This document shows, in pieces, positions 35,247 through 40,995 of a stretch of 64,000 bases of DNA. Every line of letters starts with the position of its first letter. Within the stretch, counting starts at the first letter, position 1. Where the stretch lies: NCBI GenBank assembly GCA_951406725.2, contig OX597840.1:8122001-8186000 (forward strand), written 5' to 3'. The stretch is from Octopus vulgaris. Lineage: Eukaryota. A model generated the notes under the pieces. That model made no database searches. It was not told the origin of the DNA and saw nothing but the letters and a program-made list of their open reading frames with translations. Both the position numbers and the translations under genes were made by a program.

Positions 35247-38200
35247 TATAATTTCAACAATTGAGGGTAAAATTAATTAATTATTAATCAATTTCACCAA
35301 GTGTTCAGTATGCAAAGGGACCATTTAATGCGAATTCAAATTATTACATTATATAAAAGGGCTTAGTAAAATAAATTACTTTGCCGCATACTGAACTCAT
35401 TAGAAATAGCAGCTAAAAAACTTTTTTAAAACTATTTCTAATACTTAAAGAAAACCTCTCTCATATAGTGCTTGCTCAACTCAACTCACGAAAGTTTGGG
35501 GGTAAAGACATTAAAAAATCAAATGCAAAGGTTATTTGAGAACGTACGTTTCAAGATTAGTCAACACGACACTTCTATCATCAGCTCAGAAACTCCTTGG
35601 TTTGGATTTGAAAACACTGAAAGTGAGAGCATACCCTTTCGGCTTCTCATCGCTTTCGAAGATCTGCTCGTATCTAACAGTGCCAACAAACTCAAATATG
35701 CAAGCGAAGAATTTCTGTTCTCCCCTTTCCACCAGCGTGGGTTAAAATCAGCAAACACTATGCTTATTTCGGTAAAATCCGAAGCATTAATTAGAGGGAG
35801 ATTAATTATAATTTCAACAATTGAGGGTAAAATTAATTAATTATTAATCAATTTCACCAAGTGTTCAGTATGCAAAGGGACCATTTAAGGCGAATTCAAA
35901 TTATTACATTATATAAAAGGGTTTAGTAAAATAAATTACTTTGCCGCATACTCAACTCATTAGAAATAGCAGCTAAAAAACTTTTTTAAAACTATTTCTA
36001 ATACTTAAAGAAAACCTCTCTCATATAGTGCTTGCTCAACTCAACTCACGAAAGTTTGGGGGTAAAGACATTAAAAAATCAAATGCAAAGGTTATTTGAG
36101 AACGTACGTTTCAAGATTAGTCAACACGACACTTCTATCATCAGCTCAGAAACTCCTTGGTTTGGATTTGAAAACACTGAAAGTGAGAGCATACCCTTTC
36201 GGCTTCTCATCGTTTTCGAAGATCTGCTCGTAACTAACAGTGCCAACAAACTCAAATATGCAAGCGAAGAATTTCTGTTCTCCTCTTTCCACCAGCGTGG
36301 GTTAAAATCAGCAAACACTATGCTTATTTCGGTAAAATCCGAAGCATTAATTAGAGGGAGATTAATTATAATTTCAACAATTGAGGGTAAAATTAATTAA
36401 TTATTAATCAATTTCACCAAGTGTTCAGTATGCAAAGGGACCATTTAAGGCGAATTCAAATTATTACATTATATAAAAGGGCTTAGTAAAATAAATTACT
36501 TTGCCGAATACTGAACTCATTAGAAATAGCAGCTAAAAAACTTTTTAAAACTATTTCTAATACTTAAAGAAAACCTCTCTCATATAGTGCTTGCTCAACT
36601 CAACTCACGAAAGTTTGGGGGTAAAGACATTAAAAAATCAAATGCAAAGGTTATTTGAGAACGTACGTTTCAAGATTAGTCAACACGACACTTCTATCAT
36701 CAGCTCTATCACTAATTCTTCGCTTGCATATTTGAGTTTGTTGGCACTGTTAGTTACGAGCAGATCTTCGAAAACGATGAGAAGCCGAAAGGGTATGCTC
36801 TCACTTTCAGTGTTTTCAAATCCAAACCAAGGAGTTTCTGAGCTGATGATAGAAGTGTCGTGTTGACTAATCTTGAAACGTACGTTCTCAAATAACCTTT
36901 GCATTTGATTTTTTAATGTCTTTACCCCCAAACTTTCGTGAGTTGAGTTGAGCAAGCACTATATGAGAGAGGTTTTCTTTAAGTATTAGAAATAGTTTTA
37001 AAAAAGTTTTTTAGCTGCTATTTCTAATGAGTTGAGTATGCGGCAAAGTAATTTATTTTACTAAGCCCTTTTATATAATGTAATAATTTGAATTCGCCTT
37101 AAATGGTCCCTTTGCATACTGAACACTTGGTGAAATTGATTAATAATTAATTAATTTTACCCTCAATTGTTGAAATTATAATTAATCTCCCTCTAATTAA
37201 TGCTTCGGATTTTACCGAAATAAGCATAGTGTTTGCTGATTTTAACCCACGCTGGTGGAAAGGGGAGAACAGAAATTCTTCGCTTGCATATTTGAGTTTG
37301 TTGGCACTGTTAGTTACGAGCAGATCTTCGAAAACGATGAGAAGCCGAAAGGGTATGCTCTCACTTTCAGTGTTTTCAAATCCAAACCAAGGAGTTTCTG
37401 AGCTGATGATAGAAGTGTCGTGTTGACTAATCTTGAAACGTACGTTCTCAAATAACCTTTGCATTTGATTTTTTAATGTCTTTACCCCCAAACTTTCGTG
37501 AGTTGAGTTGAGCAAGCACTATATGAGAGAGGTTTTCTTTAAGTATTAGAAATAGTTTTTAAAAAAGTTTTTTAGCTGCTATTTCTAATGAGTTCAGTAT
37601 GCGGCAAAGTAATTTATTTTACTAAGCCCTTTTATATAATGTAATAATTTGAATTCGCCTTAAATGGTCCATTTGCATACTGAACACTTGGTGAAATTGA
37701 TTAATAATTAATTAATTTTACCCTCAATTGTTGAAATTATAATTAATCTCCCTCTAATTAATGCTTCGGATTTTACCGAAATAAGCATAGTGTTTGCTGA
37801 TTTTAACCCACGCTGGTGGAAAGGGGAGAACAGAAATTCTTCGCTTGCATATTTGAGTTTGTTGGCACTGTTAGTTACGAGCAGATCTTCGAAACGATGA
37901 GAAGCCGAAAGGGTATGCTCTCACTTTCAGTGTTTTCAAATCCAAACCAAGGAGTTTCTGAGCTGATGATAGAAGTGTCGTGTTGACTAATCTTGAAACG
38001 TACGTTCTCAAATAACCTTTGCATTTGATTTTTTAATGTCTTTACCCCCAAACTTTCGTGAGTTGAGTTGAGCAAGCACTATATGAGAGAGGTTTTCTTT
38101 AAGTATTAGAAATAGTTTTAAAAAAGTTTTTTAGCTGCTATTTCTAATGAGTTGAGTATGCGGCAAAGTAATTTATTTTACTAAGCCCTTTTATATAATG

Positions 38201-40995
38201 TAATAATTTGAATTCGCCTTAAATGGTCCCTTTGCATACTGAACACTTGGTGAAATTGATTAATAATTAATTAATTTTACCCTCAATTGTTGAAATTATA
38301 ATTAATCTCCCTCTAATTAATGCTTCGGATTTTACCGAAATAAGCATAGTGTTTGCTGATTTTAACCCACGCTGGTGGAAAGGGGAGAACAGAAATTCTT
38401 CGCTTGCATATTTGAGTTTGTTGGCACTGTTAGTTACGAGCAGATCTTCGAAAACGATGAGAAGCCGAAAGGGTATGCTCTCACTTTCAGTGTTTTCAAA
38501 TCCAAACCAAGGAGTTTCTGAGCTGATGATAGAAGTGTCGTGTTGACTAATCTTGAAACGTACGTTCTCAAATAACCTTTGCATTTGATTTTTAATGTCT
38601 TTACCCCCAAACTTTCGTGAGTTGAGTTGAGCAAGCACTATATGAGAGAGGTTTTCTTTAAGTATTAGAAATAGTTTTAAAAAGTTTTTTAGCTGCTATT
38701 TCTAATGAGTTCAGTATGCGGCAAAGTAATTTATTTTACTAAGCCCTTTTATATAATGTAATAATTTGAATTCGCCTTAAATGGTCCCATTGCATACTGA
38801 ACACTTGGTGAAATTGATTAATAATTAATTAATTTTACCCTCAATTGTTGAAATTATAATTAATCTCCCTCTAATTAATGCTTCGGATTTTACCGAAATA
38901 AGCATAGTGTTTGCTGATTTTAACCCACGCTGGTGGAAAGGGGAGAACAGAAATTCTTCGCTTGCATATTTGAGTTTGTTGGCACTGTTAGTTACGAGCA
39001 GATCTTCGAAAACGATGAGAAGCCGAAAGGGTATGCTCTCACTTTCAGTGTTTTCAAATCCAAACCAAGGAGTTTCTGAGCTGATGATAGAAGTGTCGTG
39101 TTGACTAATCTTGAAACGTACGTTCTCAAATAACCTTTGCATTTGATTTTTTAATGTCTTTACCCCCAAACTTTCGTGAGTTGAGTTGAGCAAGCACTAT
39201 ATGAGAGAGGTTTTCTTTAAGTATTAGAAATAGTTTTAAAAAAGTTTTTTAGCTGCTATTTCTAATGAGTTGAGTATGCGGCAAAGTAATTTATTTTACT
39301 AAGCCCTTTTATATAATGTAATAATTTGAATTCGCCTTAAATGGTCCCTTTGCATACTGAACACTTGGTGAAATTGATTAATAATTAATTAATTTTACCC
39401 TCAATTGTTGAAATTATAATTAATCTCCCTCTAATTAATGCTTCGGATTTTACCGAAATAAGCATAGTGTTTGCTGATTTTAACCCACGCTGGTGGAAAG
39501 GGGAGAACAGAAATTCTTCGCTTGCATATTTGAGTTTGTTGGCACTGTTAGTTACGAGCAGATCTTCGAAAACGATGAGAAGCCGAAAGGGTATGCTCTC
39601 ACTTTCAGTGTTTTCAAATCCAAACCAAGGAGTTTCTGAGCTGATGATAGAAGTGTCGTGTTGACTAATCTTGAAACGTACGTTCTCAAATAACCTTTGC
39701 ATTTGATTTTTTAATGTCTTTACCCCCAAACTTTCGTGAGTTGAGTTGAGCAAGCACTATATGAGAGAGGTTTTCTTTAAGTATTAGAAATAGTTTTAAA
39801 AAAGTTTTTTAGCTGCTATTTCTAATGAGTTCAGTATGCGGCAAAGTAATCTATTTTACTAAGCCCTTTTATATAATGTAATAATTTGAATTCGCCTTAA
39901 ATGGTCCCTTTGCATACTGAACACTTGGTGAAATTGATTAATAATTAATTAATTTTACCCTCAATTGTTGAAATTATAATTAATCTCCCTCTAATTAATG
40001 CTTCGGATTTTACCGAAATAAGTATAGTGTTTGCTGATTTTAACCCACGCTGGTGGAAAGGGGAGAACAGAAATTCTTCGCTTGCATATTTGAGTTTGTT
40101 GGCACTGTTAGTTACGAGCAGATCTTCGAAAGCGATGAGAAGCCGAAAGGGTATGCTCTCACTTTCAGTGTTTTCAAATCCAAACCAAGGAGTTTCTGAG
40201 CTGATGATAGAAGTGTCGTGTTGACTAATCTTGAAACGTACGTTCTCAAATAACCTTTGCATTTGATTTTTTAATGTCTTTACCCCCAAACTTTCGTGAG
40301 TTGAGTTGAGCAAGCACTATATGAGAGAGGTTTTCTTTAAGTATTAGAAATAGTTTTAAAAAAGTTTTTTAGCTGCTATTTCTAATGAGTTCAGTATGCG
40401 GCAAAGTAATCTATTTTACTAAGCCCTTTTATATAATGTAATAATTTGAATTCGCCTTAAATGGTCCCTTTGCATACTGAACACTTGGTGAAATTGATTA
40501 ATAATTAATTAATTTTACCCTCAATTGTTGAAATTATAATTAATCTCCCTCTAATTAATGCTTCGAATTTTACCGAAATAAGCATAGTGTTTGCTGATTT
40601 TAACCCACGCTGGCGGAAAGGGGAGAACAGAAATTCTTCGCTTGCATATTTGAGTTTGTTGGCACTGTTAGTTACGAGCAGATCTTCGAAAGCGATGAGA
40701 AGCCGAAAGGGTATGCTCTCACTTTCAGTGTTTTCAAATCCAAACCAAGGAGTTTCTGAGCTGATGATAGAAGTGTCGTGTTGACTAATCTTGAAACGTA
40801 CGTTCTCAAATAACCTTTGCATTTGATTTTTTAATGTCTTTACCCCCAAACTTTCGTGAGTTGAGTTGAGCAAGCACTATATGAGAGAGGTTTTCTTTAA
40901 GTATTAGAAATAGTTTTAAAAAAGTTTTTTAGCTGCTATTTCTAATGAGTTCAGTATGCGGCAAAGTAATTTATTTTACTAAGCCCTTTTATATA
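35247..40995. repeat. 560-bp unit array: ~2.6 units in one orientation (35247-36706), then ~7.6 units inverted (36714-40995), embedded in (TA)n
   Basis: Near-identical units at 558-560 nt spacing; orientation flips at ...CATCAGCTC-TATCACT-AATTCTTCG... Confidence 0.97.
36839..36890 (+). ncRNA. Type-I hammerhead ribozyme motif (one per 560-bp unit)
   Basis: TGAG-CTGATGA-[stem II]-GAAA-CGTACG-TT-CTCA: stem I TGAG/CTCA, palindromic stem III ACGTACGT, GUU site. Also at 37399, 37959, 38519, 39077, 39637, 40197, 40757 (+) and 35537, 36097, 36656 (-). Confidence 0.72.

Follow-up and report, generated by a model that had tools for sequence, protein, structure and literature searches.

The window analysed here, 64,000 nucleotides of Octopus vulgaris contig OX597840.1 (assembly GCA_951406725.2, positions 8,122,001 to 8,186,000), contains at 35247-40995 an array of 10.3 units of 560 bp, each unit bearing a hammerhead ribozyme motif. 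On balance, and with somewhat more confidence than doubt, the array is read as one insertion of a dispersed, non-coding retrozyme with a hammerhead motif, for which a Penelope-like protein would act in trans and whose RNA would probably be self-cut and rejoined into circles. Judged by its sequence, it represents a new cephalopod family of non-LTR retrozymes (LTR, long terminal repeat), likely inserted by Penelope-like proteins.

The original prediction, made from the letters of the window alone, had described about ten near-identical units arranged as a short inverted arm and a long arm, and had placed the limits of the array exactly. The two arms face outwards and lie head to head. The short arm (35247-36706, minus strand; 1,460 bp, 2.6 units) starts with its 5' end at unit position 514 and finishes with its 3' end at unit position about 291-295, called here end A, while the long arm (36714-40995, plus strand; 4,282 bp, 7.6 units) runs from unit position 389 to a 3' end at about 192, called end B. 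Units are numbered from the predicted cut site of the ribozyme, position 1 being window position 37447. All units are 98.8-100% identical to the reference monomer (37447-38006, plus strand), which extends for 560 nt from one predicted cut site to the next and is strongly self-paired in comparison with shuffled sequences (z = -5.7). The GC content of the unit is 33-35%, and its longest stop-to-stop frame, 123 codons on the opposite strand, is without a Pfam match. The array escapes Tandem Repeats Finder, which has a period limit of 500. Between the arms lies a 7-nt spacer (36707-36713) repeating a nearby hexamer of the short arm, a sequence that resembles the product of end-joining with templated insertion. 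Both outer ends run into (TA)n, the left tract occupying 35178-35250 and the right 40990-41087, with the TATA microhomology that had been pointed out earlier amounting to 4-5 nt common to unit and flank.

Eleven type-I hammerhead cores occur in the array, eight on the plus strand and three on the minus strand, with the pattern CTGATGA-25 nt-GAAA-CGTACG-TT-CTCA. A full TGAG/CTCA stem I is present in ten of them, the core at 36703 being cut by the inversion junction. In the example at 37399-37450 (plus strand), stem I is formed by 37399-37402 with 37447-37450, the core occupies 37403-37409, stem II 37410-37434 with a U·U pair at its base, and GAAA 37435-37438, followed by the palindromic stem III; the predicted cut falls after 37446 (GUU). 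The other cores start at 36843, 37963, 38523, 39081, 39641, 40201 and 40761 on the plus strand and at 36703, 36144 and 35584 on the minus strand. The palindrome of stem III (ACGUACGU), the U·U first pair of stem II and the GUU triplet had all been correctly described. GUU is a less active cleavage triplet. For the U·U pair, to which a caveat was attached earlier, there is a precedent: the axolotl hammerhead HHR_Amex2 has U·U at the base of stem II and still cleaves and yields circles (PMC7229834). Genome-wide, the pattern CTGANGA-N10-40-GAAACGTACGT has 2,314 matches compared with 4 for a reversed control, and so is not a product of chance; a search with a short canonical stem II pattern gave one match, which was unrelated. 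Many unrelated type-I hammerheads with a palindromic stem III are found in other (TA)n-bounded elements (L201, L204, L208, L186, L188, L199 and L220), and the octopus genome is rich in undescribed hammerhead families.

The dispersal that had been proposed as a check is extensive. A search with the unit gave 171 matches in the best 40 of 1,676 candidates, on many contigs, and exact junctions of end A with (TA)n number 768 genome-wide (control 0). The insertion footprint was mapped in 80 of the first 100 listed of these 768 junctions, 79 after dropping L257 as a duplicate of L256, selection by end A having been chosen to avoid selecting loci on length. An inverted arm is present at 54 of the 79 loci, and in 51 of those 54 the second arm ends at unit 189-208, that is, at end B, about 98 nt upstream of end A. 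Among loci found with the unit as query (n = 39, L055 at a contig end being left out), 25 have ends A and B, 10 A only, 2 B only and 2 A with some other end. The far end too lies in (TA)n at 40/40 and 37/40 loci in two sets of 40. Most insertions are short (27-1,993 bp in one set of 40) with a single unit or less dominating, and the window array is among the longest. Within a locus the two arms differ by 0.37%, versus 0.77% to other loci (19 loci), and locus-specific variants occur on both arms of the same locus, so both arms come from one event; arm length varies independently between the forward and the inverted arm, as would be expected if the products of two primings were joined head to head. 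No LTR-type layout was seen in the mapped loci, where primer-binding site and polypurine tract were not searched for.

As to the window locus itself, its flanks recur at 95-99% identity in two nearby paralogous introns, where only (TA)n lies between them. The array is thus a recent insertion into existing (TA)n and not ancestral sequence. The empty sites vary in the length of their (TA)n tracts and the insertion lies inside such a tract, so that any target-site duplication, longer than 4 bp in animal retrozymes that have one, would be masked by the repeat. Sequencing runs under four other organism labels (X16-X20) hold 38-57% of the unit's words, no more than a hint of the family in related species.

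These footprints are those of Penelope-like elements, whose copies are 5'-truncated and accompanied by a truncated partner in inverted orientation and a tail of 30-40 bp; in octopus, (TA)n is the target of the Naiad and Hydra families (PMC8557442). A Poseidon protein cleaves the two target strands, extends both, and begins reverse transcription at a pair of internal sites by which the tail is defined (PMC11167929). By analogy, the behaviour of ends A and B matches that of the Penelope tail and its two internal start sites for reverse transcriptase (RT). Likeness to Poseidon PAc (PMC11167929) and to Neptune, Naiad and Hydra (PMC8557442) extends to variable 5' truncation, an inverted 5'-truncated partner, two fixed 3' ends, an AT-rich or (TA)n target and a minimal hammerhead, including the U3-A8 variant. 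Chlamys MRC1 is likewise a non-autonomous Penelope-type element with multicopy head-to-tail insertions (PMC8557442). Unlike the Penelope-like elements described, however, the octopus unit is without an RT/GIY-YIG open reading frame (ORF), its arms repeat a closed 560-nt unit head to tail, and its ends are about 98 nt apart rather than 30-40.

A diverged version of the end region gave 5,514 matches (control 0), which belong to sister families with units of 529-594 bp that share both end positions. In their hammerheads the core is retained while the two sides of stem I change together; a canonical G-C pair and GUC are present in the 594 and 584 families, and another family uses a U3-A8 core, a published variant of the Penelope hammerhead (PMC4209133). 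An earlier set of such motifs had been selected for stem I pairing and a non-G position 17, and the counts used here are from a recount anchored on the 3' module only, described below. The core plus GAAAC..GUN is present in 123 of 195 contexts; the other 72 look to be mostly junction-truncated arms plus some point mutants. Within the 123, position 17 is U in 98, C in 18, A in 7 and never G, all of stem I is paired in 110, with A-U/C-G/U-A and G-C/A-U exchanges among its pairs, and stem III is palindromic in 114; the C3-G8/U3-A8 swap is found as well. As far as sequence comparison can tell, the hammerhead is conserved as a structure across diverged families.

The 3' RNA module (example copy 37583-37724, plus strand) is a predicted multibranch domain closed by a stem of 9-10 bp, then a long hairpin. 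It comprises 30 pairs, with 90% of cells paired (31-43% in slid controls) and 13 double changes, a level reached in 0 of 500 shuffles; these covariation counts, like those for the hammerhead, are inflated by related sequences and do not represent independent events, which tells against our interpretation. RNAalifold recovers 17 of the module's pairs unaided. Because end B falls within the multibranch domain and end A comes just after the long hairpin, the modelled fold is probably the signal recognised by RT. One sister family, of 569 bp (L157, L180-L199), has a TATA-like box and a splice-donor-like sequence upstream of the hammerhead; Penelope terminal repeats carry both. A GC-rich motif at window 37807-37828 (unit about 360-382), some 65 nt past end A, is kept in 5/5 aligned families of the 545-594 group.

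A route of insertion can be proposed from these observations. Very probably, a Penelope-like RT/GIY-YIG protein would bind the 3' module and nick both strands of (TA)n, each DNA end would prime cDNA at one of the two internal sites by means of the TATA microhomology, and the two cDNAs would then be joined head to head. The origin of the template is held with much less assurance, at somewhat better than even: tandem transcripts would self-cleave as hammerhead dimers through the palindromic stem III, for which a duplex of -9.8 kcal/mol is predicted, the cleaved RNA would be ligated to monomer or oligomer circles, and RT would run past the cut site and so write multimers. Of 73 arm passages, 61 continue across the predicted cut site, and 26 arms out of 130 are longer than one unit (12/79 A arms and 14/51 B arms). 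Such read-through implies that the template is either a ligated circle or an uncut multimer, which from contigs alone are indistinguishable, a circle giving the same sequence as a tandem transcript. Published animal retrozymes do cleave and circularise (PMC7229834). The longest arms were probably shaped also by oligomer templates or by local duplications of 2-4 units. Part of the unit is present in 20 of 24 sequencing runs, 14 of them guessed to be RNA, and four assembled runs cover the unit, one at a depth of about 900-25,000 in 29/30 bins; the RNA nature of these data is a guess and they include no silent-stretch control, and they were not used as evidence.

The retrozyme reading put forward in the original prediction has stood in part. 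The element is young, dispersed and non-coding, with Penelope-type inverted insertions in (TA)n, but pure copying of a monomer circle faces contrary evidence, and this evidence also favours a rival that we regard as serious, if appreciably less probable than the reading adopted here. In that rival the Penelope double priming is the same, but an existing array would be transcribed into a linear multimer that serves as template without being cut; the hammerhead of this young subfamily would be weak or vestigial, and local duplication would lengthen the long arms further. The U·U pair and the GUU triplet speak for it, as does the cost of forcing the catalytic fold in the predicted circle of the window subfamily, 9.3 kcal/mol, where the 594 and 584 families need 1.1 and 3.2. 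Arm stops are not in excess at the predicted cut site (12/73 vs 95/858, p = 0.18). Variants recur along the long arms with a period of 2 units in the window and L050, 4 in L036 and 3-4 in L054, and such periods are at odds with a single monomer circle as the template, although polishing of the assembly could have blurred them. Of the 51 two-arm loci, 20 have both 5' stops within 8 nt of one coordinate (mean of 3.2 under permutation, with a maximum of 11 in 20,000), all such arms being shorter than one unit, which suggests one template with a free 5' end, or fold-back. A fold-back origin was rejected for the short arm of the window, the variants of which are out of register with the long arm, a result that applies to the window locus and not to the symmetric loci. 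Finally, the Poseidon hammerhead is dispensable in vitro, where uncut RNA is the main substrate (PMC11167929). Other points weigh on the same side of the balance against a self-cleaving circle. The pairing probability of stem I is about 0 in the predicted circle, stem I is out of register in the fold of the isolated 54-mer, and the Rfam search recommended earlier yielded no hammerhead at gathering level, nor at E<=10 on one unit; of published Xenopus retrozyme dimers, one of nine cleaved. Given U·U, GUU and the predicted tendency to misfold, the ribozyme of the window subfamily may be weak. Against the uncut multimer, on the other hand, diverged families of different unit length retain the core, the pairing of stem I, a position 17 other than G and the palindrome, which argues for selection for cleavage over the lineage. 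Insertions of a single unit or less dominate, so multimer sources would be a minority, and the axolotl U·U hammerhead cleaves and gives circles.

The rest of the uncertainty concerns the identity of the unit itself. It could be the pseudo-long terminal repeat (pLTR) of an autonomous Penelope-like element outside the sample, the arrays being truncated tandem and inverted copies, and Penelope elements do form the same tandem and inverted structures with a tail; moreover, the searches scored only the best candidates, and many Penelope families as well as the published octopus Naiad DNA lie outside the comparison. We nonetheless judge this improbable. In none of the 79 loci picked by end A or the 40 picked by the full unit does the unit pass into an ORF, nor is there an RT plus GIY-YIG ORF within the element at any of them, so that the linkage to a Penelope ORF envisaged earlier was not found there. 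What lies upstream of the hammerhead is the previous unit, hence the 560 nt close on themselves, and (TA)n intervenes between the unit and the Penelope ORFs that do lie nearby (L041, L066, L145, L181 and L223). The array is not an autonomous Penelope element. Least probable, and already largely refuted, is an ordinary satellite spread at the DNA level, with a chance or dead look-alike of a hammerhead, a view to which the silence of Rfam and the local periodic duplications lend some colour. Against it stand the dispersed short insertions, hundreds in number, which have a (TA)n target, 3' ends fixed at two sites and 5' ends that vary, together with the empty paralogous sites and the covarying RNA structures on one strand, and for the array an ordinary local satellite is untenable, as its relatives are dispersed insertions with fixed ends.

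Candidates for the helper protein are present in the genome. A search for the GIY-YIG family gave 148 matches among the best 150 of 6,136 candidates. One young family (L140:2577-6577, L130-L143) has an intact 781-aa ORF with RT and GIY-YIG, copies that are about 99% identical, an overlapping upstream frame of up to 479 aa and a U3-A8 hammerhead-like motif; it targets (TA)n, and we take it to be Neptune-like, partly from its CxxC linker. A very young Penelope-like family (L256, L310-L339, L357) with an intact 1,312-aa ORF exists in many identical copies, some as 4.6-kb tandem and inverted copies, also targets (TA)n and has an internal (TA)-rich tract in its 3' untranslated region. The upstream end of this family lies, like end B, inside a stem-closed domain, without detectable sequence likeness. 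An older Penelope-like family was derived from L181, and a Naiad-like peptide motif gave one match, in a decayed locus. Two features of this survey count against the proposed partnership: the ends of the two young candidates are 38 nt (781 aa) and 57 nt (1,312 aa) apart, not 98, and neither the unit nor the module was found in 125 partly redundant Penelope-bearing stretches, a sample of the genome's families. Matches to the module in L107, L145, L204 and L340 proved to be separate (TA)n-bounded insertions.

The array sits in intron 1 of a predicted VWA-domain gene, according to the gene model for P0001, which is listed as a protein of Octopus vulgaris, in agreement with the intronic position first assigned to it. 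Exon 1 (43425-43658, minus strand) encodes residues 1-78 of the predicted VWA-domain protein and exon 2 (32926-33213, minus strand) residues 77-172, and the VWA exon of the window matches P0001 at 100% identity. In the host pre-mRNA the arms (35247-38300, minus strand) would form a near-perfect hairpin of 1.46 kb that would mask three sense hammerheads and would be a likely target of adenosine-to-inosine editing or of silencing. The locus is a cluster of duplicated VWA genes, and two long arrays of a 59-bp minisatellite lie in opposite orientation at 2-4283 and 22761-25820, beside inverted VWA paralogue exons. Window 52789-64000 repeats 41091-about 52600, restarting at the right flank of the array after a run of N near 52680-52770. 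The repeat is 96.8% identical over 1.9 kb aligned, includes a second copy of host exon 1 at 55338-55105 and is probably an uncollapsed second haplotype.

By its sequence, the array falls within the definition of an animal non-LTR retrozyme. It has in common with those described (PMC7229834; 10.64898/2026.07.22.740005) tandem units that are non-coding and AT-rich, number in the thousands and occur as dimers up to multimers, each with a type-I hammerhead whose palindromic stem III is short, as well as the presence of Penelope-like elements in the same genome. The unit had been thought unusually long for an animal retrozyme, which is not so: published consensus lengths are 51-972 bp with a mean of 650 bp in ray-finned fish (10.64898/2026.07.22.740005), and 560 bp is within this range, if above the 150-450 bp of PMC7229834. 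The octopus family differs from retrozymes as described in its inverted arms, two fixed 3' ends and (TA)n target; the term 'inverted' is absent from the available text of PMC7229834, and 'tail' from that of 10.64898/2026.07.22.740005. Cleavage and circles have been demonstrated for published retrozymes, whereas the octopus family is known here from sequence. The 2026 preprint ties retrozymes to pLTRs by homology and favours local amplification (10.64898/2026.07.22.740005); homology to the pLTR of an autonomous Penelope-like element is given there for 24 of 57 Xenopus families matching transposable elements, 21 of 22 of these being Penelope-like elements. In octopus, by contrast, no homologous pLTR was found in the sample and the multimers look to have been inserted largely ready-made. 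The available text of the preprint indicates that no mollusc was sampled, and our literature search for an octopus or cephalopod hammerhead ribozyme or retrozyme found no description of this family. The word 'ribozyme' is absent from the accessible text of the 2026 octopus repeat annotation (PMC13282606), which lists 30 recently active Penelope families and the library of which may hold the family unnamed.

Penelope elements were named as candidate mobilisers of retrozymes in 2020 (PMC7229834), and the preprint supports such mobilisation by homology and co-occurrence only (10.64898/2026.07.22.740005). The insertion footprint and the conserved 3' module are newly supplied here. The octopus family therefore bears on which enzyme mobilises animal retrozymes, on whether circles are the template, and on the formation of inverted copies of Penelope elements, and it offers for this purpose hundreds of young insertions with the Penelope footprint of two start sites, a defined RNA module and two intact candidate helpers. 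A broader view, which we put forward tentatively and consider rather doubtful as a whole, is that Penelope-like elements are parasitised by circular RNAs of viroid size, an old superfamily in octopus, by means of a conserved folded 140-nt RNA signal, and not by common sequence; this module would make the helper prime both ends of a cut (TA)n at two sites 98 nt apart, with RT rolling round the circle from both. If true, this would be the first genomic footprint linking retrozyme circles to Penelope double priming, and the module would be a portable signal.

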